This document shows positions 18,348 through 39,792 of a stretch of DNA of 64,000 bases, piece by piece. The stretch comes from Candidatus Sulfomarinibacteraceae bacterium. GTDB lineage: Bacteria > Acidobacteriota > Thermoanaerobaculia > Thermoanaerobaculales > Sulfomarinibacteraceae. Position numbers and translations under genes: made by a program. The notes beneath the pieces are model-generated. The model did no database searches, had not been told where the DNA came from, and saw only the letters and a program-made list of their open reading frames with translations. The stretch is from positions 385,166 to 449,165 of the forward strand of contig CAWGLE010000004.1 of NCBI GenBank assembly GCA_963823345.1. Reading direction: 5' to 3'. Position 1 is the stretch's first letter; every line of letters starts with the position of its first letter.

Positions 18348-20724
18348 ATGGTGTTCGGCGTGAGCTGGGTGAAGCGGTGCGCCCCGTGGTTGCTGCTGGT
18401 TGTGGTGTCGTCGACCGCCCATCTGTGGAGCCTCGGCGAGCGCTCGTTCCACCACGACGAGTCCATCCACGGTCACGCCGCGTACCTGCTGGTGACCAAC
18501 GGCACCTACCATTACGACCCCACCTATCACGGGCCCCTGCTCTACTACCTCGTGGCATCGACCTTCGCGATCGCCGGCGACTCGGATTTCACCGCACGGC
18601 TGCCGATCGCCCTCGCCGGTGTGGCGATCATCGCGGTGGCATGGGCATCGCGGCGAATTCTCGGAGCCCGTCCGGCGTGGTGGACCGCGCTGCTGGCCAC
18701 GATCTCGCCGATCTGGCTCTACTACGGGCGCTTCCTCCGCATGGACATTCTCGAGGCCCTGGTGGCCTCGTGCGCCTTCGTCGCCGTGTGGCGGGCGGTC
18801 CACGGGAGCCGCCGCGCCTGGGTGTGGATCGGGGTGTGGACCGGCCTCGCCTTCGCCACCAAGGAAAACGCCTTCGTCACCGCCGCCCTGGTGGGCGGGG
18901 TCGCGGTCGGGTTGCTGGTGTCGAAGGGCGTGGGACAGGCGTGGCGGCTGACGCTCGACTGGATTGTCCGCCACCGCTGGGGAATCGTCGCGTCGATCGC
19001 CGCCGCGGTGCTGGTGACGGTCCCGCTCTTCACCGTCGGCTTCCGCCACAACAGCGACTGGTTCTTCCCCTACAAGGCGATTTCCTACTGGTGGGGCCAG
19101 CACACCGTCCAGCGGGTGGCGGGGCCGCCGTGGTACCACCTGCCGCGGCTGGCGCTTTATGAGTTCCTGCCGATCATCGCCGGGCTGACCTGGGCGATCC
19201 GCCGCGGCCGCCGCATGGGGGTCCTGGAGCGGTCGCTGGCGGCCTTCGCCGTGGCCTCGGTGGCGATGTACGCCTACCTCGGCGAGAAGGTCCCGTGGCT
19301 CGGCGTGCACCAGGTGTGGGCCTTTCTGCCGCTGGCCGGGTTCCAGCTCGCGCGGACCTTCGGCCCCCACGGCGTGTGGTGGAGCCGGACCCTCGCCGCG
19401 ATCGGTCTGGCGGCGACCCTCCTCACGTCCTTCGTAGCCAACTTCGTTCTCGACGAGATCACGCCCAACCGCGATCGGGTCGAGGCGCTGATCTACGTCC
19501 AGACCTGCCCCGAACTGCTGCCGCCGGTCGCCGAGGGGTATGAGCTGGCGGCCGCCGGCGAGGATCCGGTGGCGGCGGTGGGCGGCGAGGTGGCGTGGCC
19601 CTACACCTGGTACTGGCGCGACACTCCGACCTGGTGGGCTGAGCCGGAACGCGGCATGCGGCCGCCGCTCGTCTTCTGCGACACCGAGCGCGAGCGCGAG
19701 GTCCGCCGGATTCTCGGGTCGGGCTACACCGCCGAGACGGGTGCCGCTGCGCGCGTGGTGGGTGATGGAGGACAAGAAACCGAGCCTCGGCGAGATCGTC
19801 CGCTACGTGTTCACCCGCCGTCCGTGGGGCATCATCGGCACGACCGACACGATTCTCCTGCGCGACACCGGCGAGGCGGTCACGAGCCTGCGCGAGGCGC
19901 CGGTCCCGCCCCCCCTGGCAGCGGCGCTCGGCGCCGAATCCGCCGCGGTCATCGGTGAGGACTGGTTGATGGAGCCGCGCGGTCTCTCGGTGGCGCGTGA
20001 CGGCGTGTTGGCGGTGGCCGATGCGGCGGGCGGCGATGTCGGCTTCTTCGCAGCGGATGGTACGGTGCTCGAACAGCGCATCCCGGAGGCGATGAACCAG
20101 CCCGAAAGCCTGGCCTGGACGCCGGACGGTGTGTTGGTGGTGGCCGACACCTGGAACCACCGGGTGCTGCTCTTCAACCCGGCGTCGGGCGCCGCACGGC
20201 CGCTGCCCGCGCCGGAGGACGGCTGGTACGGACCGCGTTCGGTGGCGGTGGCGCCGGACGGCACCGTGGCGGTCGCCGACACCGGCCACAAACGGGTAGC
20301 GCTGATCTCGTTCTCGGGCGGCGAACCGACGGTGGCGACGATCGGGCGCGAGGGATCGGCCCCCGGCGAGTTTGTCGAACCGGTGGGTCTGACCTGGCTT
20401 GACAATCGACGCCTCCTGGTCTGCGACACCGGCAACCACCGGTTGCAGGTGGTCGACCGGGAGGGACGCCCGCTGGCAACCGTGGCCCTGCCCGACGCCT
20501 GGGCCGACTTCTACTCGCGGCCGCAGGTGGTCGCGCTCGACGGCGAACGCTGGCTGGTGACCGACGTGCCGGCGCAGTCGTTGTGGCTGGTCGAAGATGG
20601 CAGCGTGCGCACAATCGACCTCGCGGCGGACGGCATCACCCCGGCGGGGCTCGCCTTCGCCGACGGGACCCTGTATGTGTCCGATCTCGACGGCGGCATC
20701 TGGGCGATCGGGCTTCCCCGGTGA
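18348..20724 (+). CDS. GT39/PMT_2-like (TIGR03663-like) polytopic membrane glycosyltransferase fused to NHL-repeat beta-propeller; apparent 1-nt insertion near 19739-19741
   Basis: Frame A: ...HLWSLGERSFHHDESIHGHAAYLLVTNGTYHYDPTYHGPLLYYL... with many TM segments. From about 19740 the coding signal moves to frame +1: VPLRAWWVMEDKKPSLGEIVRYVF..., then repeated ...VADTWNHRVLLF..., ...VADTGHKRVALI..., ...VCDTGNHRLQVV... (NHL). Dropping one G of ACGGGTG joins the two. Alternatively these are two genes, with the second starting at ATG 19768. Confidence 0.6.
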
Positions 20725-20816: not shown

Positions 20817-21458
20817 CTAGGAATGATGAAGTGTTCAACGAATGAACCGATGGTCGTGCACGGTGGTTCCGGAAGCCAACGTGGATTCAGTCTCGTCGAG
20901 ATGATGGTGGTGGTGGCCATGATCGCCCTCATCCTCGGCGTGGCCCTTCCCAACCTGTGGCGTGCCGCCGTGCGCGCCGACATGACGAGCCAGGTGGCGA
21001 TGATCCAGCAGTCGATCGGCGTGTCGCGCATTTACGCCATCAAGAACAGCAGCCAGGTGGCTCTCCAATTGCTCCCCGACGATACTCCGATCGCCAAGTA
21101 TGCCATCCACGCATGGGTCGATGCCAACGGCAACGGCGCCTTGGACTCCGGGGAAGAACGGGTGGGACAATGGCCGATGACCGGCGAGATCACGATCGGC
21201 CCCGAGGCTGGCAACTCGAGCCACACCCTGCATCCGCTGGACGGCGATGCCCTGGGCGTGGTGTTCTTCGCCAACGGCACGGCCGTCGTGCACGACAACC
21301 AGGTCGGCACCGGGCAGGGGGCAGTGGTGCTCCAGGACACCTATGAGAACAAGCTGCGGATCGTCATCCAGGGCGGATCGGGGTCGGTTTATTCCGAGAT
21401 GTGGGACTACGAAGAGGAAGCCTGGATCGCCAATCCGAAGAATCTCTGGAGGTACTGA
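20814..21458 (+). CDS. FimT/GspH-like minor (pseudo)pilin, copy 1
   Basis: Prepilin-type N-terminus ...GSQRGFSLVEMMVVVAMIALILGVALPNL, followed by a GspH-like region. The start is ATG 20814 or 20823/20826. The track ORF start at 20583 overlaps the NHL gene and was rejected. Confidence 0.75.
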   Translation: MLGMMKCSTNEPMVVHGGSGSQRGFSLVEMMVVVAMIALILGVALPNLWRAAVRADMTSQVAMIQQSIGVSRIYAIKNSSQVALQLLPDDTPIAKYAIHAWVDANGNGALDSGEERVGQWPMTGEITIGPEAGNSSHTLHPLDGDALGVVFFANGTAVVHDNQVGTGQGAVVLQDTYENKLRIVIQGGSGSVYSEMWDYEEEAWIANPKNLWRY

Positions 21459-21919
21459 TGGCAGGCAGCGATACACCGTCGGCAAGGAACTCGGCCGGCT
21501 TTACCCTGATTGAGATCCTGGTGGCCCTGGTCATTCTCTCCTTTGTCGCCCTCGGCATCGCCGGTCTGTTCACCCACGCCGTCAAGACCAACGCATCGGG
21601 CCACGACTACGCCCTCCTCGCCACCGAGGCCCGGTTCGCGCTGGAGACCCTGCAGGCGCTGCCGTTCGACCACGCCGATCTCACGATGGCCGGGTCGCCC
21701 CACACGATGGCCCCGGTCAACCCCAACTTCACCATCACCTACACGATTGTCGACTACGACATCGACAACTGGCAGCAGGCCTCAGCCGGCTCGTGGACGC
21801 AGGCGGCGACGACCACCGACGCCAACGTCAAGCGGATCTCGATGACGGTGGCGTCCACCAACCAGGTCCTCGATGGACGGCGCGTCTTCACCGTCTCGAG
21901 CCTCAAGATTCCGGGGTAA
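21458..21919 (+). CDS. pilV: PilV-like minor pilin (only in cluster 1)
   Basis: TGATG overlap with the previous stop. MAGSDTPSARNSAGFTLIEILVALVILSFVALGIAGLF. Confidence 0.7.
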   Translation: MAGSDTPSARNSAGFTLIEILVALVILSFVALGIAGLFTHAVKTNASGHDYALLATEARFALETLQALPFDHADLTMAGSPHTMAPVNPNFTITYTIVDYDIDNWQQASAGSWTQAATTTDANVKRISMTVASTNQVLDGRRVFTVSSLKIPG

Positions 21920-21923
21920 GGTC

Positions 21924-22995
21924 ATGCGCAGAACTCAACGCGGTTTCACCCTGATCGAGCTCCTGGTCGCATCGGCCGTGTTCGCGATCTTCATGATCGG
22001 CATCCTCAACCTCCTCGACTCCTCGACCAAGGTCGCGAAGATCGAGTCCTCGCTCGCCGACACCCAGGAAAACGTCCGCTTCGCCGCCTACCACATCATG
22101 CGGACCGCCCGGATGATGGGCGGCGCGACCATGCCGGTCGCGGCCGATCCGTGGCCGGCACCGATCAGTGGGTGTCCGGAGAGCTCATCTCCAACGCCTC
22201 CGGCACGGTCCAGATACCGGGTTTCGGCGGGGTGACGGTGATGCCGGGCTCGGACGTCTTGACCCTGCGCGGCTTTTTCGAGATCTCGCCCTTCTTCACC
22301 AACCCCACGAGCGTCATCGTCGACTCGGACACGGTTACGATCGCCCAATTCAAAGGGATGAAGCGTTCGACCCCGCCGAAGACCTCATCAACAACATCAC
22401 GAGCTTCACGCCCGCCGCCCTCGAGGGCCGCGGCATCGTCTTCATGGGTGAAGGCAGCTATTGCGTCGGCAGGGTCGATTCCGGCGCACAGTATTTCGAT
22501 GCCGGCACGGCGACGAGCAGGATTCACATCCACCACATGGAGGACACCTCGTTCTGGGGCACCCTGAACACGGACTGGACCTACCCACCGGGCTTCCAGG
22601 TCTACCGGGTCGGCATTCTCGAGTCCTACACCTACTTCGTGAGCCCCGACAACGTCCTGCGGCGGGTGCGGATCTCCGGGGGCAGCCCGGAGGCCGAGCC
22701 GGTGGCGATCAACATCGGCGGCCTGCAGGTGGCGTTCGGGTTCGACGCCGATGCGAACGGCGCCATCGAGGGCGCCGAGTGGATCGAAAACCCCGCCGGG
22801 CCGACCGCGCTGGTCGGCCTCGAGGACCTCACCCTGCGGCTCGCCGTCCTCGGACGGACGGACGTCACGGTGCCCGATTGGATCGAACCCGAGTCCACCT
22901 TCACGGTCTTCGACGGCGACGCGCAGAACAAGGACAGGACCGCCAAGTGGCGTCGCGTCGACGTCGAGGTCAACCTGCGCAACTACAAGTTCTGA
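21924..22995 (+). pseudogene. pilW: PilW-like minor pilin, copy 1, with two frame changes (about 22149 and 22347)
   Basis: [34 protein letters not shown].... It continues in a second frame (GTDQWVSGELISNASG...RGFFEISPFF...) and a third (FDPAEDL...LEGRGIVFMGEG...WRRVDVEVNLRNYKF). It is colinear with the intact paralog at 31854-32945. Both shifts fit one missing base in a C or G run. Confidence 0.7.
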
Positions 22996-23002
22996 GGGAG
23001 CG

Positions 23003-23537
23003 ATGATGCAACCGAACACCCTGCCGATCACAGGATGCCGCCGGAAAAGTCTCCGGCGAGCGCGGCGCGGCGCTGATTCTGGCCCTGATGGTGTCGCTGG
23101 TGCTGGTCTTTCTCGGCCTCGGCGTGCTGTTGCAGACCTCGCTCGGGCTGCAGGCCTCGGGCACCGACCGCTGGGTGACCAAGGCGCTGTACGCCGCCGA
23201 CGCCGGCGCCATGATGCAGATCAGCATGATCCAGGGGGGCGTGTTGGGCTCGACCGGCTCGTTCGTCCTGGTCGACGACCCGAACCTCGGCGGCCTGCTC
23301 AAGACCGAGTTCACCGTCACCGTCGACCGATTCTGCACCACCGAGCCCGACCAGCCGGTGCAGGGGTACGAGGCGGGCGACGAGGAAGGCTACAGCCGGC
23401 GCTTCTTCCACCTGCGCTCGCAGGCGGTGCGCAACGTCGGTGATCTCGCGGGTCTGACCCAGGCGGCGGTCGAGGCGGACGTCGCGTCCCAGCCTTTCAA
23501 GAACGATCAGTTCGTCCCTGTGGTCCAGTGCTACTGA
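23003..23537 (+). pseudogene. pilX: PilX-like protein, copy 1, with a frame change near 23036
   Basis: ATG 23003 (MMQPNTLPITG) is in a different frame from the conserved body ...[54 protein letters not shown].... There is no in-frame start for the body. Confidence 0.6.
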
Positions 23538-23557
23538 TGCGGAGCGGGAGAACAGCT

Positions 23558-25559
23558 ATGAGACACCAGCGATTGATCACTGCGGCGGCCCTGGTCGCGG
23601 CCCTCGCGACGGCCGGGTCGATGACGGCGGACGACCGCAACTTCATGACCGCGGCGGCGGCGCCGCCCAACCTGATCTTCATCCTCGACACGTCGAGCTC
23701 GATGGTGCTCAGCCCGGAGGTGACGACCGAAGGTGACCCGCCGGTCCCGGCGGCCCTCGAGGGCGCTCTCCTGTCATCGGGCAACGTACCGGGGGCGGGG
23801 GACGACCCCTACTCGCGGATGGGGATCGCGAAGAGGGTGCTCAAGGACTTCCTCGACGACGTCGGCGTGGCCAACGTGGTCCTCGCCGGCTACGCCCAGG
23901 CGGAGCCCGCCGACGGCTCCAACGGCGTGCCGCTCAAGCACTGGGTGTACGAGGCCAGGGCGCAGGACCGCTTCCACATGCTGGAGGCGAGCTACGCCTA
24001 CCGTTTCGGCTATGCCGAGAACCACGCCGGCATCCTGCTCGACAACCCGGGCGAGATCTACAGCGCAGAAGATGATCGGCTACAAGCTCTACTTCGACCC
24101 GGCGACGACCGCGGTCACCGAACGCTTCGGTTATGTCAACGCCTACGACACCGGCTACACCGAAGACGCTGCCTGACGGCTCCACGGTGCGTCTGCCCTA
24201 CGATCTGATGCCGGTCTACTTCGGCAACTGCTTCATGGACGACGGGGGCACACCGGCGGACGACACCGACGACACGCCCCGCTGCTGGGACACCACGGGC
24301 GAACCCGCCACCACCATGGTCTTCCCGTTTTACGCCTCAGGTTCCTACGACATCGTGGACGGCCACATGGTGTCGGAACGGTGGTACTACGGCGACCCGG
24401 GATCCCTGACCTTCCCCGACTGCGAACCCTCGATCACGCCCACCGCCGACAACCCCGATGACGGCTGTCTGGCGGAGTGGGAGGAAGTCTCAGGCGCCAG
24501 CATTCTCCAGCACAAGCGCCGGGTCCACCTCGAGATCCCTGAGACCGTCAACAGCCAGCCCAACCACTTCCTCGCGGTCGACTCCGGGGGCAACCGGGTC
24601 GGCAACGCGGTGGAGAGCGACACCCCCGGCAACGAGAACTACGACGGGCTCGGCGGCGCCGACGCCGACTACGACGGCGACGACTCGAACGACTGGGTGC
24701 TGTATGTCGCCTCGGTCGAACAGCGGAACTACAAGACGCTGTGCGCCGCCGTCGGGTCGTCGCTTCCTGGACGCCGACCCCGACCAAGACCGAAGAGGAG
24801 TACTGCGGCGGGTTCACGATCCCGACGTTTTCCTCCCAATTGAACGCCAGCTACCTCTATACGATGTATGCGGACGTCACCAATCAGACCGGGTACACCG
24901 CGGAGCTCGTGTCGCAGCTGGTTCGACTGGGGTCAGGGCCACGCCGCGACGGACTACGTCAACTACCAGTGTTTCGGTGGTCTGTCGGGTTTCGCAAACG
25001 CTCCGGCGAACTGCTCGAGCACGCCCGCGTCGTACATGTACTGGAATGACGACACAGGCACCTCGGGCGCCGCCGACGGCCGGTATGCGCGGCCTCTGGA
25101 CACTGCCAAGGTCTTCCCCTGCACCCCGGGCAACTGCGACCGGTTTCCAACTCGCTCACCAATAACTCCACGAGGCGGTGGCTCGGCGTGCTCAACTCGT
25201 CGGCCACGACGTCCACAACGGCATCTACCAGGTGTGCTTCGGGTTCAATCTCGTAGGCGCGGCGCCGGACGGCAGCGACTACTCTGTGTCCCGACATCTG
25301 CGCCGTGACCACCGGCGGCAGCTCCGCGACCCCGACCAACACGCCGGTCGCGACCTCGACGCCGACCCGGACACCGACCCCCGGCGGGCCGACAGTCGAC
25401 GCCGACAGCACAACGACCCCGTCGGGTGGAGGAACGGCCACCCCCACACCGACCGTCGGGTTCGCGGCGACCTCGACGCCGACGCCGAGCAAGACCCCGA
25501 CCCCGCGTCCGCCGACACCGACGCAGACGCCGAGCCGCACCGCGACCCCGGTCGGTTGA
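23558..25559 (+). pseudogene. E1: secreted MIDAS (DxSxS) protein with a Thr/Pro-rich tail, about 7 frame changes
   Basis: MRHQRLITAAALVAALATAGSMTA..., ILDTSSSMV (23687-23701), [19 protein letters not shown]. Pieces in alternating frames are colinear with E2: QKMIGYKLYFDP, LPYDLMPVYFGNCF, NPDDGCLAEW, NHFLAVDSGG, DADYDGDDSNDWVL, VHNGIYQVCFGF. Ends ...TPTPSKTPTPRPPTPTQTPSRTATPVG. Confidence 0.6.
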
Positions 25560-25577
25560 TTGGAAGAGGAGACAGCC

Positions 25578-28500
25578 ATGATGAACACTGAATTACAGCA
25601 ACAAGCGACTCTCTCGATCGTCCGGTGGGGGTTGACCCGCTCGGAGGCTTTCTGCGCCTGGGGGCCGTCGGGCTCCTGTCCTCGTCGCGGCCGGGACGGT
25701 GCAGGCGGGCGTCTTCCCGGACCAGGCGGCGTTGACCCTTCAGATCTCCGACAACATCGATGACAGACGTCACCAACCCGTACGGCGGCACCTTTCCCTC
25801 GTGTGCGACGTGCCCGTACGTCCACTGGACGGACGGAGGCTCTGTCACCACGTGCATTCAGGATGCAATATGTGGCACGACCATCACCAGCGATGCCCGG
25901 GGGGCGTGGGGAGTCAACTATTTGCAGGGAATGGCGAGCGCCACGAACTGGTCGCTATCTCATTCCCAAGATCTCCCGGCCCTCCGACCCGGGTTTGTTG
26001 CAACCCAGTGGACCAACATCCAGATCGAGTACGATTTCGAGGTCGAGCAGCTCAGCAAGGACGGCATCATCTGGGCCGCCCAGGACGCGGACAACAACGC
26101 CTCCCCCGAGGCGGGGTACCTCTTCCGGATCCGGGGGTCGTCGCCGTTCAACTCGAGCCAGGACAATCACCCCAGCGCCGAGGCCTCCACGGTCGACCCC
26201 TCCTTGTATAGCCGAAACTGTTCAGCCTGGGATCGATCTGATGCAAGATCACCGGCGAGGACACCTACCAGCTGATCGGCACCAGCTTCATCAACTCGAA
26301 CTGTCCTGAATCCTTCCAATGCCGACCACCACCTACGATGTCGCCGACACCACCGACGTCAAGACCAAGTACATGCTTCGAAAACGTCCCGTTTCGGATG
26401 CGCCTCTCCTGGTTCTGCGGCAACCTGCGGGTTCAGATCGTCCGCATCGTCCACCCGACGACCGCGACCGAGGCCACCTACAAGGGCTGCGGCGCGGCGT
26501 GCGGATCCACCGGCTTCGACGAACATCGAGGACTGCTGGTGCACCGTGGTCGAGTGGTCGCCGTTGCCGCTCGAGACACCGCTCGGGCCGGGCGCGGCCG
26601 GCCTCTGGGTGAGTTCGGGGAGTACAACCAACTACATTTCCAACAAGTACGACAACTTCAAGTTCAGCTACTGGGACCCCAACTGCGGCCTGGTGTGCGG
26701 GCCGTGGGTCGGCTGGGGCAACGCCCGCACCGACCTCATCCCGTTCAAGTTCCTCTACGAGGGCTCGCTGCTTGACATCTCGGCCGGCCGCAACTTCGAC
26801 GTCGCGGCCGACCGCGGCAAGATCGACGTCAAGACCGAGGCGCCGGCGTCGGCCTCGTCCTACAACCACTCCGCCGACTCGAACCCCTACTGCAACGGCT
26901 GGAAACTGTACGAAGACCTGCCCGACCCGACCGATACGACCGGCAACGTCGATGACATCCTGGCCTTCCTCGAACCGATGTACAGCGCGGTCGACTTCGA
27001 GAGCAATGGTGGCAGCCCCCCCGCCTTTTCGTGGGTGGATACGGCCGCAGAGGTTGTCGAAGACAACCCGCATCCCGTGGTTGCCGACGGCTCGACCCCC
27101 ATCAACTCGTCGCTGCTCCAGGCCTTCGACTGGTACGTCGACAAGAAGACCAACTCCTCGTGGTCGTCGGACGCCTTCGACTCCTGCCGCCAGTGGTACG
27201 TGATCCTCATCACCGACGGTGAGGAGGCGTGCGAGCCCGGCAACCCCAACGCCGTCTGCGACACCGGCGGGGCGGCCGAGAAGTTCGCCAACCCGAGCGT
27301 GACCGGGGTTCCCCCGCTGCCGGTCTACACCATCGGTTTTTCGCAGTCGGTGGATGCGGACTCGCCGCTCAAGTGCATCGCCGACCAGACCGGCGGCTCC
27401 TTCATGACGGCGGAGAGCCAGGAGGAGCTCAAGAACGCCCTCTACGAGGTGTTCTACGACATCGAGGACCAGGCGCGGTCGTTCGCCCCCTTCAAGGTCG
27501 CGCCGCCGCCATCGAGCGCCGGCGGCAGCGCGACCCGCGACTACCTCGCGGTCTTCCCGCTGTTCCAGCCGCTCGAAGGCAAGAGCCTGTGGGCGGGCAA
27601 CCTCTGGGCCTTCCCGCTGAACAGCGGCCAGCCCGTCCTGCCGACGATCGGCGACTGCGAGGTGGACACCACGCAGATGGTGTGGAACGCCGCCGACGCC
27701 CTCCAGGCGCAGGTCGACGCCCACAGCGAGGCCGACCCGAAGCGGTTCGTCTACATGGGCAGCGATCTCAGCGGGTCGTGGCAGCGTTATGACCTGGCGA
27801 CCATGCCCGATGACACCGACCTGCAGACCGAGTTCCGATCGAAGCTCAGCCTGCCCGCCGGAATCACCGATCTCGACGAGCAGAAGGTGATCGCGCAACA
27901 GATCGTGAACTTCCTCCGCCTGGCCTACATGGACAACGATTTCGACGGCTCGAACGCGGGCCCACCGCTCGATCCGCGTCCGGACGGCTACCCGGTGCTG
28001 GGCGAGTTCTTCCACTCGCAGCCGGTGGTCGTCAACCCGCCCAACAACCTGCAGTACTTCTACGACTGGGGGTTCGGCGCCTCGGGCGAGGTCGGGGTCC
28101 ACAACTACGGTGATTTCATCACCCGCCAGGCGAAACGGCGGCGGTTGGTGCTCGCCGGTTCGAACGACGGCATGCTGCACGCCTTCGACGGCGGGTTCTG
28201 GGACCGCGAGCGATCGACGGTCGGGGAGACCTACGACGAGATCCACGACCTCGGCAACGGCACCGAGCTCTTCGCCTGGGTGCCGCAGGCGGTGATGCCG
28301 ACCCTCTACGACATCACCTCCGGCGGGTCCCTCGATCATGCACTTACCCAAGTATCTGGTCGACGGGCCCATCACCAAGGGCGACGCCTTTATCGACCAC
28401 GACCGTGAAAGCGGCACCCCTCGCGAGTGGCGCACGCTGGCCCTGGTCTCCATGCGGCGCGGCGGCCGCGGCATCGCCGCCCTCGATATCACCCAGGCCG

Positions 28501-29714
28501 ACCCCACCAGCGGCTCCGACTACATCCCGACGGATTCGGTCTTCCCCGGCTGCCGGGTCGGCAGCACGTCCGGTTGCGACGGCGAGTTCCCCAAGGTCCT
28601 GTGGGAGCTGGCCGACACCGGCGACAGCGACTCCAACGGGAAGCCCGACCTCGGCTGGACCTGGTCCAAACCGGCGATCGCCCGGATCGCGGTGTACAAC
28701 TCCTCCGATCCGCAGCAGCCGGACGACCTCTTCGTGGCCTTCTTCGGCGGCGGCTGGGACCAGAACGAGGCCGACGAAACCGGCACCTTCCTCTACTGCG
28801 TCGACCTCGCGACCGGGACGGTGCTGTTCAGGGAAAAGGTGCTGTTCGCGGAAAACGTCCCCGTGGATGTGCCCGGCGGGGTGACCGCTCTCGACTCCGA
28901 CATCGACGGTTTCCACGACCGCATCTACTTCGCCGACTCCTACGGCGGCGTGTGGCGCCTGCAATATCCGGCGCCGACCAGCTCGAGCGCCACCGGCGCC
29001 ACCGCCGGCACGTTCACCAAGATCTTCGCCTTCAACGCCGGCTCGCCGAGCTTCCCCGACCGCCAGGAGTTCTTCACCCGTCCGGTGCCGGTGCCGGCGC
29101 GGTTCAACGGCTCGAACTACACCTGGGGTCTCGCCCTCGGCAGCGGCGATCGCGCCAATCTCGAGCGTGAGGACTCCGGCTTCGACCACTTCTACTTCCT
29201 GATCGACGCCGAGGACGGAGACACGCGCGGCATCTCGGACCTCGTCGAAATCGACTACACCGAGCTCAACGGCGGCTTCGACTGCTCGGGCCTCACCGAC
29301 CAACCGCTCGATCCCCCCAAGTACGGGTGGTACCTGAGCCTGCGGGAGAACGAAAAGGTCATGTTCGACGCCTCGGTGCTCGATGGCTACATCTTCTTCC
29401 CCACCTTCGATCCCAGCACCGCGACCGCGACCAACCCGCCGAACACCTGTGAGACGGCGAGCGGCCCCGAAACCCGGGGCGACCGGGCCGTCGAGTGCCG
29501 GGCGGCGGGCATCGGCCGCACCTACAGGTTGTGGTACGAGTGCGGCCTCGGTGAGTACACGGAGCACAATGATATTATTACGGGGCAGGAGGTTGTCGAC
29601 ATCGACGGTGAATCCTCGGTGTGGTCGGCGACCTCGGATCCGACGACCGTTCCTCACAAAGACCCGGTACTGTTGAATCGGCAGCACACGGTGACGAACT
29701 GGCGACAGGAGTGA
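25578..29714 (+). pseudogene. pilY1: F1: PilY1-like tip adhesin, copy 1, about 9 frame changes (8 within 25.6-26.55 kb, one near 28326)
   Basis: SD GAAGAGGAG precedes ATG 25578. Long intact stretches 26546-28330 and 28338-29714 contain ITDGEEAC, VYTIGFS, LGEFFHSQPVVVNPP, LAGSNDGMLHAFDGG, ALDITQADP and the DSDIDGFHD Ca-loop (28893-28919). It is colinear with F2. Confidence 0.7.
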
Positions 29715-29716
29715 AC

Positions 29717-30565
29717 ATGAGACCTGGGCTCTGGGTCCTCGGCATCACGATCGCGGCGGCCGCCCTGGCCACCGCGATGGATATCCCGATGCGCGACGGG
29801 ACGGTCGTCACGGCCGACAGCTACAAGGTCACCGGGTCGTACGTGATGATCGTCCTGGCCGACGGGTCCCAGGTGGCATTCGATGTGGCGGATGTGGACC
29901 TTGCGGCTCTGCGCGAGGCGGAGGCCGCGGCCGCCGCCGCATCCGGCGACGAGCCCGCGCCGGAAGCGGAAGCACAGTCGAGCGACACGATCTCCAGCGG
30001 ACGTTCGTTGAAGCACGCCGGCGCCGCAGCCGACGACGCGGCGGACGGGCTCGCCATCACCGATCGCGACGTCAAGCACATGCGCGGCAGCGGCGTGCGC
30101 GGCGAGGACGAGCAGCAGGAGGCCGACGCCTCGGGGACCGAAACAGGTCCCGAGGGGGACTACCAGGTGGGCGGCAGCGTGGTGCTCAACAACGTCCGGG
30201 TCGAACCGGCCGGGGAGGGCCGCTGGCAGATTCAGGGCGAGGTGGTCAACCGCAGCCCGCGGCCGGTCCTCAACGTGACCGTCAAGCTCGAGACCCTGGG
30301 CGGCGGCGAGCCGTGGAGCGGCGAGGTCCGGGCCGCCGGCGTCCTCGGACCCGACGAGAAGGCGGCCTTCACCCACAGCTTCATGGCCGAGGTGCCCGAG
30401 GGCAAGGCGCAGCCGAGCATCCGGGCGAGCGTGTTGTGGATGCAGGAGGAGTCGCGGCGCGAGCCGGACTACACCAAGGCCGGCGGGGTTCCCCACCCCA
30501 GCAACCTGCCGCTGCAGTTCGGCGGCGTCACCGGCGCCGACGTGCGGCCGACGCCCGTCCAGTAG
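29717..30565 (+). CDS. H1: hypothetical secreted protein (cluster 1 only)
   Basis: ATG lies 3 nt after the F1 stop. MRPGLWVLGITIAAAALATA signal-like N-terminus, an Ala/Glu/Asp-rich linker, and a beta-rich C-domain. Ends ...DVRPTPVQ. Confidence 0.55.
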   Translation: MRPGLWVLGITIAAAALATAMDIPMRDGTVVTADSYKVTGSYVMIVLADGSQVAFDVADVDLAALREAEAAAAAASGDEPAPEAEAQSSDTISSGRSLKHAGAAADDAADGLAITDRDVKHMRGSGVRGEDEQQEADASGTETGPEGDYQVGGSVVLNNVRVEPAGEGRWQIQGEVVNRSPRPVLNVTVKLETLGGGEPWSGEVRAAGVLGPDEKAAFTHSFMAEVPEGKAQPSIRASVLWMQEESRREPDYTKAGGVPHPSNLPLQFGGVTGADVRPTPVQ

Positions 30566-30571
30566 CGGTCG

Positions 30572-31033
30572 ATGCCGCTGAACTTCCGCAAGTCAGCGGT
30601 CGCGATCGGGCTGGTCGCGATCGTTGCGCTGGCTCTGCTGTGGCGGGCCTGCCGCTCCCGCGATGACTCTCCGCCGCCGCCTCCGACGGACTTCGCTACC
30701 GAAAAGGTGCGCCTGGTCTCTCCCGACCTCGACCTCGAGCTCCTCGAGGTGCGAGGCATCGTCAACCCCGGCTACACCGACTGGGCCTGCGTCTTTTCGT
30801 GCCGCGAAAACGGCGGGTGCCGGGCGGAGACCCGGGTACGGATTCTCTACACAACGGGGGGCGAGAAGCGCACCCTCACCCTGAGCGGCCACTTCGACGC
30901 CGACCGCGGCCAGAATATCCGCGTCGGGCGGATGCAGCGTCCGCCGGTCGCGGTGGATCGGGTCGTGGAAGTCACCGTCGAGGTGGAGGCGCCCTTCGTT
31001 CCCGGTGCGCCGCGACCCACCCCGGTGCAGTGA
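30572..31033 (+). CDS. G1: small single-pass membrane protein with a YTDWAC-x4-C-x5-C motif
   Basis: MPLNFRKSAVAIGLVAIVALALLW TM segment. ...PGYTDWACVFSCRENGGCRAE...VGRMQRPPVAVDRVVEV...GAPRPTPVQ. Paralog of G2 (39793-40257). Confidence 0.6.
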   Translation: MPLNFRKSAVAIGLVAIVALALLWRACRSRDDSPPPPPTDFATEKVRLVSPDLDLELLEVRGIVNPGYTDWACVFSCRENGGCRAETRVRILYTTGGEKRTLTLSGHFDADRGQNIRVGRMQRPPVAVDRVVEVTVEVEAPFVPGAPRPTPVQ

Positions 31034-31122: not shown

Positions 31123-31183
31123 TGTCAAAGGTTTTTGAATGACGGTGGCGACCTGTTGACGGTCCGCCCGCGGGTGCCACATG
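31123..31183 (+). promoter_or_regulatory. Candidate promoter block of pilus-tip cluster 2
   Basis: TGTCAAAGG (31123), N24, TTGACGG (31156), N14, CCACATGATAGTAC (31177). Paralogous to 20757-20816. Confidence 0.45.
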
Positions 31184-31227
31184 ATAGTACTGACCTACCG
31201 GTCGGGAACGGAGCCCATCGTGATGAG

Positions 31228-31854
31228 ATGCCGCCAACACCGTCGACAGCCGACCGCCGCCGGCGCCGGAAAGTGCAGCGGGGTTTCACCCTCAACGAGA
31301 TGATGGTGGTGGTGGCGATCGTCGGCCTCCTCGCGGTGATCGGGATGCCCAACCTCCATCGGGCGGCGATCCGGGCGGATCTCCTGGAAGAGGTGAAGGC
31401 GGTCCGCCAGGCCCTGGCGGTGGCCCGGATGAAGGCGCTCAAGAGCGGCCGCAGGGTGGCGGTTGCGCTGATCCCCGGTGCAACGGCCCAACCCGGCCAC
31501 TCGGTGGTGGCCTGGGTCGACGACGCGGCGGACAAGAGCCTCGACCCGACCGACGAGGTGGTCGGCCGGTGGAACATGGGGGTCAAGACCCTGATCGGTC
31601 CGGACGACACCGCCGAGGACTGGTCGTTGGCGAGTCTGTCGGGGTCGCAGAAGGGCGTCATCTTCCTCCCCGCCGGGAACGCCATCGCCCACGGAACGGA
31701 CATCGGCATCGGGTTCGGTTCGGTGGTGCTCTCGGATCTGAAGGGCAACCGGATCCGGTTGTTGATCGCCGCCGGCGCGGGCACGGTGCGTGAGCAGATG
31801 TGGGACCCCGACCTCGGCGTGTGGTCTGACGAGATCAGGTTCTGGAGGTACTGA
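31228..31854 (+). CDS. FimT/GspH-like minor (pseudo)pilin, copy 2
   Basis: MPPTPSTADRRRRRKVQRGFTLNEMMVVVAIVGLLAVIGMPNL.... Ends ...FWRY, like copy 1 (...LWRY). Confidence 0.75.
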   Translation: MPPTPSTADRRRRRKVQRGFTLNEMMVVVAIVGLLAVIGMPNLHRAAIRADLLEEVKAVRQALAVARMKALKSGRRVAVALIPGATAQPGHSVVAWVDDAADKSLDPTDEVVGRWNMGVKTLIGPDDTAEDWSLASLSGSQKGVIFLPAGNAIAHGTDIGIGFGSVVLSDLKGNRIRLLIAAGAGTVREQMWDPDLGVWSDEIRFWRY

Positions 31855-32945
31855 TGATCGGCATTCGATCCCTGAAATCAGGCCGCAGAGCGGGTTTCAC
31901 CCTGATCGAGGTGGTGGTGGCGATGGCCGTGTTCGCCATCTTCATGATCGGCATCCTCAACCTGCTCGACTCCTCGACCAGGATCTCGGAGATCGAGAAG
32001 GCGTTGTCCGACACCCAGGAAAACGTGCGCTTCGCCGCCTACCACATGACGCGCACCGCGCGGATGATGGGCGGCGCCGGGATGCCGTTTGCGGGCACGG
32101 TCGCCGGCGGCCCCAGCTGGATCGCCGGCGAGCTGCTGTCGAGCCAGTCCGGCAGTCTCACGACTCCCTATCCGCTCGGCGCCATCAACGTGCTGGACGG
32201 AACGGACGTCGTGACGATCCGGGGGTTCTTCGAGGTCCCGCCGTTTTTCGTCGACAAGACCGACGTCAATCTGTCGCTCGACCGGATCGAGGTCACGGAG
32301 TCCATCGGCACACATGTGATCAACAGGGATTTCGACGCCATCGATGTCAATCAACTGGAGGGCCGCGGCCTGGTGTTCATGGGCGAGTTGGACCGCAGCC
32401 AGTACGCCGTGGGCCAGCTCGGGCCGTCCTCGACCATGGACGGTACGGGTCCCGACCGGACGCTGACCCTGATGATCAGCGACGCGCCGGCCGCCTGGTG
32501 GGCGGGGCTGAATGAGACCGGCGCGGCGACCACGCCTTCGTTCGAGGTCTACCAGGTGGGCGTGCTCGACGCCTACACCTACTTCGTCGACCCCGAGTTC
32601 CGCCTGATGCGGTTGCGGGCCGACAAGTCGGCCCAGGGCGCCACGCTGCAGCCGGTGGCGGTCAACATCGGCGGTCTGCAGGTGGCGCTGGGGGTCGATG
32701 TCGACAACGACGGTCAGGTGGACGTCTGGCAGGGGGAACCTACGGAAGCCGGCGTCAGCGGCAATCGGGTGATCTCGATGCGCATCACGGTGCTCGGGCG
32801 GACGCCGGTCGAGATTCCCGGCTGGGAGGAGCCGGCGGCCACCTTTGGCGTCGGCCAGGAGGCCCAGACGGTCGACGCCGCCGGCCGCAGCGCCAAGTGG
32901 CGCCGGGTCCAGGTCGTGGCGACGCTGCGGAACTACCTGTTCTGA
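31854..32945 (+). CDS. pilW: PilW-like minor pilin, copy 2 (intact)
   Basis: TGATG overlap. ...[56 protein letters not shown]...; 363 aa. Confidence 0.8.
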
Positions 32946-32952
32946 CGGGGGG

Positions 32953-33502
32953 ATGATGATGATCGAGCCCACTTCGACCGCGCGCACCGGCAGCCGCGAC
33001 AACGAGCGCGGCGTGGCGCTGATCATGGCCCTCCTGGTGTCGGTGATTCTGGTGTTTCTCGGCATGGGGCTGTCTGTTGCAGACCTCTCTCGGGCTGCAG
33101 GCCGCGGGGACCGACCGCTGGGTGGCCAAGGCGATGTACGCGGCCGATGCCGGCGTCATGATGCAGATCCAGATGATCCAGGCCGGCGCCATCGGCTCTG
33201 CGGGCAGCTTCGTGTTCCAGGACGACCCCGATCTCGACGGTTTTCTCAAGGGCGATTACACGGTCTCCATCTCCGAATTCTGCGAGACCCGCCCGATGAC
33301 CACCGTGTGGGCCGACGACTCGGCGTGGTCCTCGGAGTTCAAGGTGCGCCACTTTCACTTTCGAAGCGATGCGGTGCGGACCATCGGCGGGCTCGGCGGC
33401 CTGAGCCGGGCGGCGGTCGCGGTGGACGTCTCGGCGTGGCCGTTCGTCGAAGACCAGCTGGTGCCGGTGACCCAGTGCCGCGGCGCCGAGTGGGGGGGCT
33501 GA
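32953..33502 (+). CDS. pilX: PilX-like protein, copy 2, apparent 1-nt insertion in a G4 run at 33066-33069
   Basis: [39 protein letters not shown], then frame +1 ...[30 protein letters not shown].... Confidence 0.7.
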
Positions 33503-33504
33503 AC

Positions 33505-35592
33505 ATGAAACGACTCCGATGCTCGACATCGCTCGCCCTGGTCGTGGCGCTCCTCGCGGCATATCCGTTGACCGCGGACGACAAGGACTTCCTGCGCAAA
33601 CGCGCGGCGGCGCCGGTGCTGGTCTTCATTCTCGACACGTCGGGCTCGATGGTCGGGTCTCCGGAAGAGCCGGGGATGATGCGCGGCTCCCGCGTCGGTT
33701 ACGGCATGGTGCCCGGCGCCGGCGATGATCCCTACTCGCGGATGGGTATCGCCAAACGGGTGCTCCGGGACTTCCTCACCAGCGCCAGTGATGCCACCTA
33801 TGCCCTGGCGGGCTACGCCCAGGAACTGCCCTCCGACGGCTCCAACGCGGTCCCGCAAAAACACTGGGTCTACGAGGCCCGCGACGGCGACCGCTTCAGA
33901 ATGGTGGAGCCCAACTACGCCTACCGCCTCGGCTACGCCGAGACCTTTGCCGGGGTCCTGCTCGACAACCCGGCCGACATCCTCAAGGGGAGGATGATCG
34001 GCTACACGCCGTACTTCGACCCCTCCGCCCCCATCCTCGACCGCTACGGCCCCACCAACGCCTGGGCCACCGGAATCGTGGAGGGCGACAGTGAGCTCGA
34101 GCTGCCCTACGATCTCCTGCCGATGTATTTCGGCACCTGTTTCGTCGACAACAAGGAGACCCCGCTCGACACCACCGACGATGTGACCGTCTGCCGCGAC
34201 GACGTCTTCCCGTTCTATGCCACGGGCCAACGCGACGTCAACGGCGACATGATGACCGACGAGTTCTACTATGGCGACCCGGCGTCCGGGAGGTTCCCGG
34301 ACTGCACGCCCAACCGGACGCCCGATGCGACGAATCCGGACGATGGATGTCTGTCGAGATGGTGGACCATCGGCAGCGGCACCTCGACCGACAACCGGCG
34401 CCGGGTGCAGGTGCGGATCCCGTCGACCGGTCCCGAGGGCAAACCGAACCACTTTCTGGCGGTCGACGATACCGGCGCCTATGTCGGCAACGAGCTCGCG
34501 GCGGACCCCGGCAACGACGAGGACTATGACCTCGACCTGACGCCCGACGCCGACTACGACGGGTCCAAGGACAACGACTGGGTGCTCTGGGTCGAGGTGG
34601 TGGAAGAACAGCGCAGCCGGACCTGCAATTACGTGATCTCCCCGACTCCGACGACGACGCCGACCGAGACCCCCACGCCCACTCCGACCATCACCGCGAC
34701 GCCCACCCAGACCCCGACGGTGACGACCACTCCGACGGTGTCGCCCACAATGACCCCGCCGCCGGTGAATTGCAGCGACATCACCCTGGAGATGCGTCCA
34801 CCGGCGAGCGGCATCCTGCAGGCCTGGATCAACAACGGCACCACCTCCCCGATCGAGATCACCCGCACGGTGGTGAGCTGGGATCCGCCGGACTCGTCCT
34901 ACTACCTGGATTGGATGGGCGTGTACTCCGGCTCCTATTCCCACAACATCGGGACCCACTATTGGGGTGACGGCCAGCCGTCCGTCGACTACGGACCGAT
35001 CACCGACGTCGACACCGAGGACCCGTCGCTGGCGCGGATCCCGGCCGGCTACAGATTCGGTTGGTACGCCGACATCGACAGCAACTTCACCCACAACGCC
35101 TTCCATGAGGTGTGTGTCGACGTCGACGTGATGAACGAGGGTCTGACCTGCAGCGGCATCTGCGACAGCTACGAGCTCATCCAGCCGCCGACGCCCACCC
35201 GGACCCCGACCCGCACCAACACGCCGTACGCCGGCACTCCGACCCGGACGCCGACAATTACTCCGACCCGGACGCCGACGATCACGCAGACCCCGTCGCA
35301 GACGCCGACCATCACGAGGACACCGACCAGGACCCTGTCCCCGACCATCACGCAGACGCCGACCATCACGAGGACACCGACCAGGACCCTGTCCCCGACC
35401 ATCACGCAGACCCCGTCGCGGACGCCGACGAGGACCGCGACACGGACCCCGTCCAACACGCCGACCCGGACGGCAACCCCGACCATCACGCAGACCCCGA
35501 CGCGGACGCCGACCAGGACTTCGACTTCGACTCCGCCCCCGGTACCCACGGCGACCAGGACACCGCTGCCGACGGCGACGGAGATCCAGTGA
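33505..35592 (+). CDS. E2: secreted MIDAS (DxSxS) protein with two Thr/Pro repeat tracts (intact, 695 aa)
   Basis: ATG lies 3 nt after the pilX-2 stop. [37 protein letters not shown] (33634-33648), [21 protein letters not shown] linker at about 34630-34770. C-terminal TP tail at about 35183-35589. Confidence 0.75.
35301..35408 (+). repeat. Two perfect tandem 54-bp copies inside the Thr/Pro-coding tail of E2
   Basis: GACGCCGACCATCACGAGGACACCGACCAGGACCCTGTCCCCGACCATCACGCA occurs at 35301-35354 and again at 35355-35408. Flanked by degenerate copies. Confidence 0.85.
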
Positions 35593-35612
35593 TGAGCCGG
35601 CAGGAGGCAGCC

Positions 35613-38600
35613 ATGAGTCGTCAGAAGCGGCCCGCCAGACACCTTCCAGCGGCGTTCGGGGCCTTCGCCTGCGGACTGCTCACCATCGTGGTGGGCGGGT
35701 CGGCCGCATGGGCGCAGAGCTTTCCCACAGCCCCGCCCGTCGAGGTGATGTTCGACGATTTCGAGACGACCACCCCGCCGCGGCCGCCGGACGACCCGCT
35801 CGACGGCAGCGGCGCGATCTGGGACGAGTGGAGCTACAGCTCGACCGATTTCGAGTACAACCCGTCGGCGGTGCCGGCGCAGATCCGTGGCGGGATCTGG
35901 GGCGTGCGGTGTCTCCAGGAGAACTCGACCCGGAGGACGGAACCACGAGGGCTACCTGGTGGTCAAACAGTCGATGCCGGGCAACCCCGGGTACGACCCG
36001 GCGGAGTGGACCAACTTCCGGCTGGACGTCGATCTGACGGTGACCCGCAACGGCATCCCGGGCATCGCCTGGGGCGTCCGCGACCCCGACAACGACGGCA
36101 TTCCCGATCAGGGGTATCTGTTCACGCTGCAGGGCTTCCCCACCGAGGGCCAGGCCGCCCGGGGCATCAGGGCGACCTGGCAGGTCAACCGCATCGACGG
36201 CGAAGGCAGCTCGACCGTGGTCGAGCAGGGGACCGTCAACCTGCCGTCACCTGACGACTACACCAGGTTCCTGGTCGACTACAAGGCCTTCCGCCTCCGC
36301 CTCGAGTGGTACTGCAACGACCTCCAGGTGCGCATCCAGCGGGTCTACAACACGTCGGTGATCCCGCAGAGGTTCTACGGGTGCGGGTGCGGAACCGAGA
36401 GCCTCGACCCCGAAGCCTGCTGGTGCACCCTCGCCGAGTGGAGTGACCCGGGCGCCAGCCTGACGCCCGGCATCACGGGTCTCTACCACAGCGGCCGGCG
36501 CAACGACCCGCCCGCTGACAGTCTGAACGAGACCATGTGGGACAACTTCAGAGTCTCGGCGTGGAACCCGGGCTGCGGTGAATCCTGCGATCCCTGGACC
36601 GTCTGGAGCACGACCTCGACCACCCAGATCCCGTTCAAGCTGTTGTACGAGGCCGGCCTGTTCGACTACTCGGCCGGGCGCAACGCCGAGGGTCGCAAGA
36701 TCGACGTCAACTCGTTTGCACCGTCCACCACGTCGGCCAACAACTCGACCACCACCAACTACTGCAACGGCTGGAACCTGTTGGTCGATCTGCCGGCGCC
36801 GCTGGCGCCGACCGAGATCGACGACATCAGGTCCTTCCTCCAGCCCATGGCCACCGCGGTGGACTATGTCGCCGACGGCGGCGGCTCGTTCAGCTGGCAG
36901 GACACCTTCGACAACGATCCTTCAAGCCCCGCCTACAACCCGGTGCCGATGATCGCCAACGGTTCGACCCCCATCAACAACTCGCTGCTCGACGCCTTCG
37001 ACTGGTACGTCGATCAGGTGACCATCGGCGACTGGGCCACCGACCCGCTCAAGGCGTGCCGCGAGTGGTACGTGGTGTTGATCACCGACGGCGCCGAGAG
37101 CTGCGCCGGACCGGGCCAGTTCGCCTGCGACCCGGGCCAGGCGGCCTCCAAGTTCGCCGATCCCGGCATCGAGGGGGTGGAGGCGGTCCCGGTCTACACG
37201 ATCGGGTTCTCGGAGTCCCTGAGCGGCAGCGCCACGGATACGGGGCCGGGTGCGCCGGAGGACCTCACGTGCATCTCCGAGCAGACCGGAGGGATCTACT
37301 ACAGCGCTCGCAATGCGGCCGAGCTCAGCCAGGCCCTCCAGGATGTGTTCTATTCGTTGCAGACCGAATCCCGCACCTTCACCCCCTTCCGGGTGTCGCC
37401 GCCGCCGTCCGCAGCCGGTCCGGACAACCAGACCCAGGACGCGCTGGTGGTGTATCCGCTCTTCAACGCCGCCAAGGAGACGTCGCTGTGGCGGGGCACC
37501 CTGTACGGTTTCCGCTTCAACGGCAGCAACGCCTCGATTCCGAACACCGGCAACTGCGAGATCGACCTCTCCCAGGTGGTGTTCGAAGAGGTGAGCCAGA
37601 GAAGCTGGGACGCCAATGCGCGGCTGGCTGAGCAGCTCGCCGCGCCCACCCCGGAACGGCACGTCTTCATGGGCAGCGATATCACGGGCAACTGGGCCAG
37701 GCACGATCTCGCGACCATCCCCACCAACGACACCCTGCGGACCGAGTTCATGGACCTGATCGGCACGACGGATCGGGTGAAGGCCCAGGAAGTGGTCAAC
37801 TTCGTGCGCGGTCTGTGGATGGACGACGATCCGACCGCCTCGCCCGACCCCAAACCCGACGCACGTCCGGACGACAGCTCGTCGCTCGGCGACATCTACC
37901 ATTCGCAGCCGGTGATCGTGAGCCCGCCCAGCCGGTCCCTGTACTTCTTCGATTACGGCTTCAGCGCCGCCGGCGACGAGGGTGCTCACGACTATGCCGA
38001 TTTCATGCGCAAACACGCCAAGCGGCGGCGGGTGGTGCTCGCCGGCGCCAACGACGGGATGTTGCACGCCTTCGACGGCGGCGTCTGGGATCGCGACCGC
38101 GCCGGAGCCGGTGAGACCTATGACCGGATCCACGATCTGGGGAACGGCTCCGAGCTCTTCGCGTACGTGCCCCAGGCGGTGATGCCGAAGCTCATGAACC
38201 TGACCTATATCGCCGACCAGCAGTGGATGGTGGACGGCCAGATCGAGGTGAGTGACGCCTTTATCGACCACGACCGCGACAGCGGCACCCCTCGCGAGTG
38301 GCGCACCGTAGCCATCACCACCATGCGGGAGGGCGGCCGCGGCCTCGTCGCCCTCGACATCACCCAACCGGACCCGATCTCGTCGTCGCCGGATTTCGAG
38401 CCCGTGATCTCCGCACTTCCGGGGTGTACCGACGGGACCACCGCCGGGTGCGACGGCGAGTATCCGAAGGTGTTGTGGGAGTTTTCCGACACCGAGGACG
38501 CCGACTCCAACTGCGCCGAGGATCTTTCGGGCGACGACTGCTGGCCGTGGTGGGACCTCGGGTGGACCTGGTCCAAACCGGTGATCGCCAGAATCGCGAT

Positions 38601-39648: not shown

Positions 39649-39666
39649 GGAACGCATTCTGAAACG

Positions 39667-39697
39667 GCCGGCGGGGCGGACCTACCGCCCCGCCGGC
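39667..39697 (+). terminator. GC-rich 13-bp stem hairpin after pilY1-2 (terminator-like, no T tract)
   Basis: GCCGGCGGGGCGG (39667-39679), loop ACCTA, CCGCCCCGCCGGC (39685-39697). Confidence 0.35.
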
Positions 39698-39792
39698 GTG
39701 ATCCACAGAGCAGACCGTGGAGCCGGGTCGATCCCCACTCCTGCGATGGCGCGTCGTGCGCGAGCCTCGAAAAAACTGGTAGAGTGCAATCC

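Follow-up and report, generated by a model that had tools for sequence, protein, structure and literature searches.

A stretch of 64,000 nucleotides (the window) from an acidobacterium of Candidatus Sulfomarinibacteraceae type, assembled as 27 contigs of 4.98 Mb in all, carries type IV pilus tip-protein genes in the order fimT-pilV-pilW-pilX-E-PilY1-G-H at 20.9-31.0 kb (cluster 1). The coding sequence of four of these genes is repeatedly thrown out of frame. Is the cluster decaying, or is the consensus sequence wrong? Taken at face value, the frame changes would imply that one pilus tip module out of two is being lost, and annotation pipelines will report four pseudogenes at this locus. The answer reached below prevents that misreading: the frame breaks very probably reflect a faulty consensus in a noisy metagenome assembly from long reads, not gene decay.

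Gene content of cluster 1 and map of the frame changes

All genes of the window described here lie on the + strand. Upstream of cluster 1, a PMT_2/GT39-like glycosyltransferase-NHL gene (18348..20724; Pfam PMT_2 and NHL detected on the intact Logan and JGI products) forms a single ORF of 796 aa in the sister genome G001; in the window, a single extra A near 19737 (GCCGAG[A]CGGGTG) splits it. The cluster begins with two intact genes: fimT-1 (20904..21458), encoding a GspH-like minor pilin identical at 184/184 residues to its counterpart on the Logan contig L035, and pilV-1 (21458..21919), whose product carries the N-terminal methylation motif and matches L035 at 152/153 residues. A look-up of the window's exact PilV protein found no record. 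They are followed by pilW-1 (21924..22995), which is spread over three frames, and by pilX-1 (23003..23537). Gene E (23558..25559) corresponds to a protein of about 670 aa with a DTSSS motif in its N-terminal part and a C-terminus rich in Thr and Pro; its Pfam search gave zero matches. Gene F (25578..29714; 1373 aa in L035) is PilY1-like, the beta-propeller PF05567 scoring 50.5 bits against a cut-off of 28.1. Two intact genes belonging to no family close the cluster, G (29717..30565; 282 aa), whose exact product was found only on a 1.2-kb JGI contig, and H (30572..31033; 153 aa), whose exact protein is present on two Logan contigs from runs SRR25510171 and SRR25510183. PF07963 was above cut-off on pilV and pilW of cluster 1; PF12019, PF16074 and PF14341 stayed below it on the cluster 1 products, and the first two exceeded it on the paralogues of cluster 2. 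The methylation motif, the GspH/FimT, PilW and PilX_N domains and the beta-propeller characterize the priming and tip modules of type IVa pilus systems that are built from minor pilins and PilY1, and the gene set agrees with this profile. Cluster 1 is most likely such a module, predicted from its sequence to comprise four minor pilins, the E protein and a PilY1-like adhesin.

Frame changes were traced by GC3 frame plot, by tblastn with the intact G001 orthologues and by frameshift-aware protein-to-DNA alignments. All three methods revealed many frame changes within otherwise continuous, conserved coding sequence, about 24-25 in total between 22146 and 28346. Two affect pilW (+2 nt at 22146-7 and -1 nt at 22356) and one pilX (an inserted A, +1, at 23032). 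Gene E contains about ten, at 24065, 24167, 24738, 24752-8, 24912-5, ~25142 (-1), ~25210 (+2), 25283, ~25395 and ~25412 (+2). In gene F, ten lie within 25645-26515 (~25645 (+2), ~25677 (-1), 25765, 25955, ~25990-6 (-1), 26235 (+2), 26305, 26320, 26380 and 26515) and one further at 28343-6, the stretches 26516-28342 and 28344-29711 being free of them. The hot zone is statistically real because its density, about 40 per 10 kb, far exceeds the genome-wide rate of about 1-2 per 10 kb.

A preliminary description of this DNA had counted about 19 frame changes; the hot zone is confirmed, and the number proved too low. Nearly all of the positions proposed then agree with the present map to within about 30 nt or less. 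Two of them (26205 and 26242) fall near one single change at 26235, and the list overlooked the distinction of 24738 from 24752 as well as the changes at 25395, 25412, 25955, 25990 and 26305. It was correct that the reconstructed frames of cluster 1 contain no in-frame stop (zero were found) and that fimT, pilV, G, H and the part of F at 26516-29711, except 28343, are clean. The placing of many shifts at short G or C runs did not hold, since 13 of the 15 precisely placed single-base events lie in no homopolymer and the two others make a run of 2 bases. The paralogous cluster 2 (31156..40257; fimT-2, pilW-2, pilX-2, E2, pilY1-2, H2), credited earlier with only two shifts, in fact shows four, all private, at 31176 (+1), 31260-1 (+2), 33074 (+1) and ~35937.

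Intact copies in independent assemblies and breaks across the genome

Comparison of the same locus in close relatives, which had been proposed as a check, revealed intact ORFs in every case. The Logan contigs L035 and L036, from different sequencing runs, are mutually identical across 12,624 nt, their flanks match the window at about 99% identity, and all their ORFs are unbroken (184, 153, 356, 177, 670, 1373, 282 and 153 aa). On the JGI contig L044 (97.8% identical), pilW (356 aa) and pilX (177 aa) are unbroken and the same three indels are private to the window; the genes of the JGI contig L038, with a pilX of 177 aa, are likewise unbroken. The more distant G001 (86-88% identical) retains the entire cluster 1 unbroken, including a pilW of 356 aa and an E of 668 aa, and E is also continuous in JGI P0002 (684 aa). 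Eighteen frame-changing indels of 1-2 nt could be placed in near-identical context. All are private to the window, where 16 are insertions and 2 are deletions. For the window's own allele at 24.75-25.3 kb, protein, metagenome and DNA-pattern searches gave no intact copy: nothing above 78% identity was obtained by protein search with the read-through E, the metagenome scan with this protein found no relative, and the exact DNA pattern over the 25283 junction (gap of 0-2 nt allowed) had zero matches. For about 8-10 breaks, the reading as artefact draws on analogy with the other breaks and on dN/dS.

The same type of lesion was found in essential genes. In rpoC, present once and recognized by its NADFDGDQMAVH motif, a single extra A interrupts the frame after residue 232. 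On contig C4, 23 of 165 G001 ORFs match in more than one frame, which is about one gene in seven. Twelve background junctions were inspected: nine are lone +1 insertions in the window genome, two are lone 1-base deletions, and one, in a gene of 976 aa, is compound, combining an insertion with two 1-base deletions; the sequence context of nearly all of them is free of repeats. Across the genome, a codon-model Viterbi scan flagged 486 candidate frame breaks and revealed several further hot zones. The highest break rates belong to strain-variant contigs, C17 (7.6 per 10 kb; 90% identical to part of C18) and C14 (6.3 per 10 kb; 95.6% identical to part of C2), and the hot zone at 677-683 kb of C13 consists of DNA without counterpart in G001. 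Frameshifts were measured by ORF-based tests and the codon-model scan in place of raw blastn gap counts against G001, which were too noisy: of the 639 non-triplet gaps over 332 kb, many fell into divergent or intergenic sequence. When the direction is reversed and ORFs of the present genome (G000) are searched against G001, a break produces multi-frame matches both ways whichever genome it lies in, and the broken genome is told apart only by the longer intact ORF in the other. The present genome, which stands for its species in the reference set of this analysis, is accordingly flagged as carrying several hundred artificial frameshifts, one of them in rpoC.

Long-read consensus indels are known to produce frameshifted gene calls, and metagenome-assembled genomes below 40-fold coverage require polishing (PMC9262707); frameshift-correction tools exist, for instance proovframe (bioRxiv 10.1101/2021.08.23.457338). 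The present case resembles these assembly errors in that single-base indels fragment genes genome-wide, essential ones too, while accurate independent assemblies are unbroken and poorly supported contigs fare worse. The classical Nanopore pattern, however, consists of homopolymer length errors, whereas here most events are insertions outside homopolymers, and the homopolymer errors invoked in the preliminary description are not supported. As most of the placed events lack the homopolymer signature, the artefact would belong to another class of error or stem from a consensus that was unpolished or had little support. Inspection of the insertion sites by eye revealed no common sequence motif.

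Strain-variable segment and candidate cause of the hot zone

About two thirds of the frame changes of cluster 1 are contained in a strain-variable allele segment (24750..26600, + strand) that covers the E C-terminus and the PilY1 N-terminus. Nucleotide mismatches to L035 reach 45% in this segment, as against flanks that are nearly identical, and about 17 of 26 non-triplet indels relative to L035 fall in the 2.5 kb of greatest strain divergence. Five breaks (22146-24167) lie in sequence just 1-3% divergent from L035.

The earlier idea of cross-mapping between the two paralogous clusters during polishing is unlikely. Clusters 1 and 2 share just 65-67% DNA identity, nucleotide similarity to cluster 2 was undetectable where the breaks are densest (24.7-26.7 kb), and hot zones elsewhere in the genome lack any paralogue; the zone coincides instead with the strongly strain-divergent segment. 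We infer that low or mixed read support caused the local concentration of breaks. Sporadic extra bases, mostly single-base insertions outside homopolymers, occur throughout the assembly, with roughly 1-2 indels per 10 kb that break a frame, and this rate rises 20-40-fold in places where the sampled population would have different alleles or accessory DNA. There, few reads would back the particular allele built into the contig, or reads from other alleles would align onto it, and polishing would fail. The E/PilY1 N-terminal region of cluster 1 is one such strain-variable stretch. Mis-aligned alleles are a candidate cause only: compared with random nearby positions, the indels are not significantly nearer to strain SNPs (P ~0.06 and 0.5).

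The collapse of divergent alleles is known to generate indel errors and apparent frameshifts (PMC8445201). In Trypanosoma brucei Lister 427, as here, indel errors and truncated ORFs cluster where alleles differ, and the ORFs are restored by phased or independent sequences. That organism is, however, a diploid eukaryote with two known haplotypes, whereas the strains of the present metagenome are deduced from the strain-variant contigs of the bin. In the present genome, the errors accumulate in strain-variable regions, which are exactly those drawing attention.

Selection on the broken genes and rival explanations

Substitutions assigned to the window lineage within 22140-26520 comprise 11 nonsynonymous and 31 synonymous changes, giving a dN/dS of about 0.11 (p for neutrality 2e-11), as compared with 0.09 for the intact L035 lineage. 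The skew is weaker within 25578-26515, where the ratio is 7:6, although these counts are small. The comparisons show indels that are private to this assembly, breaks of essential genes by indels of the same type, and purifying selection on the coding sequence. The locally bad consensus put forward earlier as one of two explanations is supported by the near-identical independent assemblies that are intact, by the same error in rpoC and by the low dN/dS. The other explanation, that a redundant copy has recently begun to decay, is not supported, the lineage dN/dS being like that of the intact copy.

Such a real and recent pseudogenisation, in which cluster 1, redundant with cluster 2, decays by small indels, would account for the facts that every break is private to this genome and that cluster 1 has about 25 breaks, six times the four of cluster 2; one loss would moreover be tolerable because the paralogous cluster adjoins. 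We nevertheless consider it very improbable, given that dN/dS shows no drift towards 1, that in-frame stops are absent and that insertions far outnumber deletions among the placed events (16 of 18). In bacterial pseudogenes, two dozen indels are expected to come with roughly at least 100 neutral substitutions and with a deletion bias. The same insertion type also breaks rpoC and about one-seventh of the genes on the contig. Furthermore, the paralogues are old, not freshly redundant, because they are about 65% identical and both clusters are kept as a pair in G001. A related view takes the indels as real, the trace of a hypermutation that favors insertions and is confined, in one strain, to the region of the pilus tip adhesin. 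It has a very slim chance of being right; if true, such hypermutation would be a new way to switch off or diversify one of two PilY1 modules, the coding signal being still fresh.

Pilus and adhesin genes are classically phase-variable in other bacteria, and the frame changes might accordingly be programmed, by slipped-strand phase variation or by translational recoding of the pilus tip genes. The likelihood of this is close to nil. Phase variation is effectively refuted because the shift sites contain neither repeat tract nor homopolymer; a shared motif was not detectable by eye; recoding would need about 25 events at about 25 sites in four genes; and the same lesions occur in rpoC and in housekeeping genes. 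Improbable as well is a mixture in which most breaks are consensus errors and a few are real differences of a minor strain in the hypervariable E/PilY1 region, for example an inactivated allele. The window allele at 24.75-25.3 kb was found nowhere else in the searches made, and the less skewed ratio in 25578-26515 would fit with it. However, the breaks in this region do not differ in kind from the private errors demonstrated elsewhere, the counts are small, and a read-through of E guided by JGI P0002 yields a coherent, stop-free protein whose last 140 residues are 91-92% identical. If the breaks are consensus errors, as we favor, the cluster 1 of the organism itself is most likely intact and expressed, judging from the sequence.

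The underlying biology, a duplicated minor-pilin/PilY1 module, is ordinary but usable. As in clusters 1-3 of Myxococcus xanthus (PMC7541494; PMC8833165), several minor-pilin/PilY1 sets coexist and the adhesin N-terminus is variable; there are two tandem sets of GspH/FimT-like, PilV, PilW and PilX proteins, followed by a large PilY1 beta-propeller. Unlike the M. xanthus clusters, the acidobacterial version, known from its genes alone, has an extra 670-aa E between pilX and pilY1, and the small genes G and H after pilY1. Within this duplicated module, even very close strains differ sharply in the C-terminal part of E and in the N-terminal part of PilY1.

Frame changes in the cluster 1 pilus module

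Cluster 1 (window 20.9-31.0 kb) is a type IVa pilus minor-pilin/PilY1 module comprising the minor pilins fimT (GspH-like), pilV, pilW and pilX, the unassigned gene E (23558-25559, about 670 aa), gene F encoding a PilY1 beta-propeller protein of about 1373 aa, and two small genes, G and H, without assigned family. Cluster 2 (31.1-40.3 kb) is a paralogous module with 65-67% DNA identity to it. The genome analyzed (G000; 4.98 Mb, 27 contigs, 65% G+C), in which the window occupies C4:385166-449165, was compared with its closest relative in this study, G001, a MAG labelled Candidatus Sulfomarinibacteraceae (MFD04716.bin.1.4).

A GC3 frame plot revealed repeated frame changes at 22.1-26.5 kb within expected single genes, and the cluster 1 proteins of G001 matched the window in alternating frames. 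The breaks were mapped with a custom frameshift-tolerant protein-to-DNA aligner, for which G001, L035 (a Logan contig) and P0002 (a JGI protein) served as the three guides. Two breaks were found in pilW, one in pilX, around 10 in E and around 11 in F, giving a total of about 24-25 for cluster 1. The frame breaks as such are real. Their positions in the preliminary description were right to about 30 nt, although its list was somewhat incomplete. As it had also claimed, fimT, pilV, G and H are free of breaks, and no in-frame stop was seen across the reconstructed frames of cluster 1. However, cluster 2, which had been credited with only two breaks, carries four private frame-changing insertions, at 31176 and 31260-1 in fimT-2, at 33074 in pilX-2, and at about 35937 in pilY1-2. 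The break rate over the entire 20-36 kb stretch exceeds the genome background.

E and its homologues (P0001-P0068) make up a conserved family whose members measure about 640-750 aa, lack a Pfam match and have a DTSSSM (MIDAS-like) motif close to the N-terminus. One homologue bears the NCBI name 'VWA domain-containing', and E may be a detached form of the vWA module found N-terminally in other PilY1 proteins. Directly upstream of cluster 1 lies a gene that joins a PMT_2/GT39-like glycosyltransferase to NHL repeats (18348-20724) and whose position is kept in L035, in the JGI contig L038 and in G001; in the window, one inserted base at about 19737 splits its ORF. The tails of E and E2, which neighbour it, are long and rich in Thr and Pro.

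Intact copies and selection

Two Logan contigs (runs SRR25510171 and SRR25510183) encode an H protein identical to that of the window. The contigs do not differ from each other over 12.6 kb and show about 99% identity to the window in the flanks. All their cluster 1 genes are intact (184, 153, 356, 177, 670, 1373, 282 and 153 aa), and those of G001 are single ORFs of 213, 376, 322, 762, 1358, 316 and 155 codons, stop to stop. Alignment with the Logan contig shows that the breaks in near-identical sequence are 1-2-nt window indels in an unchanged context, as in window GATCTACAGC[G]CAGAAGATGA versus Logan GATCTACAGC-CAGAAGATGA. Insertions account for 16 of the 18 indels placed in near-identical context. 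The earlier remark that many shifts sit at short G or C runs is not borne out, 13 of the 15 single-base events lying outside homopolymers. Insertion-biased and non-homopolymer, the breaks are unlike the textbook Nanopore error pattern.

A third source, the JGI contig L044, is 97.8% identical to the window and covers both pilW junctions; its PilW has the variant residues particular to the window throughout the first 143 aa. The same three indels are private to the window in this comparison. In L038, E is intact with a C-terminal allele near that of the window. Protein, metagenome and exact DNA-pattern searches did not turn up the window's own 24.75-25.3 kb allele in intact form.

Codons that differ by a single nucleotide between the window and L035 were polarised by the outgroup G001. 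The window lineage at 22140-26520 gave N=11 and S=31, a dN/dS of about 0.11 (p = 2e-11 versus neutrality), as against 0.09 in the intact L035 lineage. A long-dead copy with two dozen indels is expected to show neutral substitutions and stops, but cluster 1 shows neither.

Lesions elsewhere in the genome and rival explanations

When 400 kb of G001 was compared against G000 contig C4, 23 of 165 G001 ORFs matched more than one frame. Twelve junctions inspected outside the pilus clusters, nearly all in non-repeat context, comprised nine lone +1 insertions in G000, two lone 1-base deletions and one compound site, located in a 976-aa gene. Among the twelve is a junction in rpoC (C4:373945-378175, ending about 7 kb and starting about 11 kb before the window), a gene with no second copy in the assembly. 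A single extra A at C4:374654 (GCCCTGC[A]GGCGTT) interrupts its frame behind residue 232 and upstream of the NADFDGDQMAVH catalytic motif. Because a cell is unable to live with its sole rpoC broken, a lesion of this type is artefactual, and the split is a clear sign that the consensus of this genome, which represents its species, contains errors.

A genome-wide Viterbi scan based on codon usage, counting only same-strand frame switches with widely overlapping ORFs, gave 486 candidates, around 1 per 10 kb, with a sensitivity of about half of the window's known isolated breaks and 6 of about 25 in the hot zone. Further hot zones were detected at C13:677-683 kb, C12:84 kb, C5:76 kb and C21:15 kb. 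The C13 zone (677440-682632; L040:940-6130), which has no DNA counterpart in G001, holds 11 candidates within about 5 kb of one long plus-strand coding stretch. At L040:685-825 (C13:677185-677325), an element of about 40-140 nt has dozens of G001 matches on both strands at 80-100% identity and thereby behaves like a REP-like dispersed repeat. G001 has breaks of its own: its pilY1-2, for example, lies in three frames (L011/L012, C10 at about 1,152,040 and 1,153,734), unlike that of G000, a single 1253-aa ORF. Both long-read MAGs therefore carry pilus-cluster breaks, at different sites.

The hot zone (22146-28346) is very probably an assembly artefact. The locally bad consensus proposed at the outset is supported by the intact near-identical contigs, the similarly split rpoC and the low dN/dS. 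The other early proposal, decay of a redundant copy, is very unlikely, given a dN/dS close to that of the intact lineage and the lack of neutral substitutions and stops on the window lineage. A mixture of consensus errors and real differences is likewise very unlikely, and programmed frame shifts are extremely unlikely. Paralogue cross-mapping during polishing, suggested as an aggravating factor, is also unlikely, since the clusters are 65% identical, cluster 2 contains nothing similar to the densest zone, and other hot zones lack a paralogue.

Strain variation at the densest breaks

Against L035, the flanks show 0-8 mismatches per 250 nt, compared with 60-113 per 250 nt at 24.75-25.5 kb; the count stays raised to about 27.0 kb except in one quiet 250-nt bin. 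As judged from the alignments, the allele at window 24750-26600, where the E C-terminus and the PilY1 N-terminus are encoded, varies between strains. This segment differs by up to 45% from the Logan contig, with sharp boundaries to about 99% identity on both sides, and about two thirds of the breaks fall within it. The allele is mosaic, E residues 549-684 being nearer P0002 and the PilY1 N-terminus nearer L035; such a pattern suggests that alleles have been exchanged by recombination or that the pilus tip is under diversifying selection.

The highest break rates of the genome (7.6 and 6.3 per 10 kb) belong to two strain-variant contigs, C17, 90% identical to C18:179-206 kb, and C14, 95.6% identical to the C2 end. 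Together, the strain divergence of the segment, these break-rich contigs and the absence of the C13 zone from G001 point to low or mixed read support. Breaks would accumulate where the contig allele has few supporting reads or, alternatively, where it was polished by reads from other alleles. Low-coverage MAGs require polishing (PMC9262707), and collapsed alleles yield indel errors and apparent frameshifts (PMC8445201). The indels were not significantly nearer to strain SNPs than random positions in the vicinity (P about 0.06 and 0.5), and five breaks lie in sequence only 1-3% divergent.

Strain-variant duplicates in the bin pair C17, C14, C25, C26 and C11 with C18, C2, C13, C21 and C18, respectively, and the ends of several contigs overlap with 94-96% identity, which is evidence that the source population held multiple strains.
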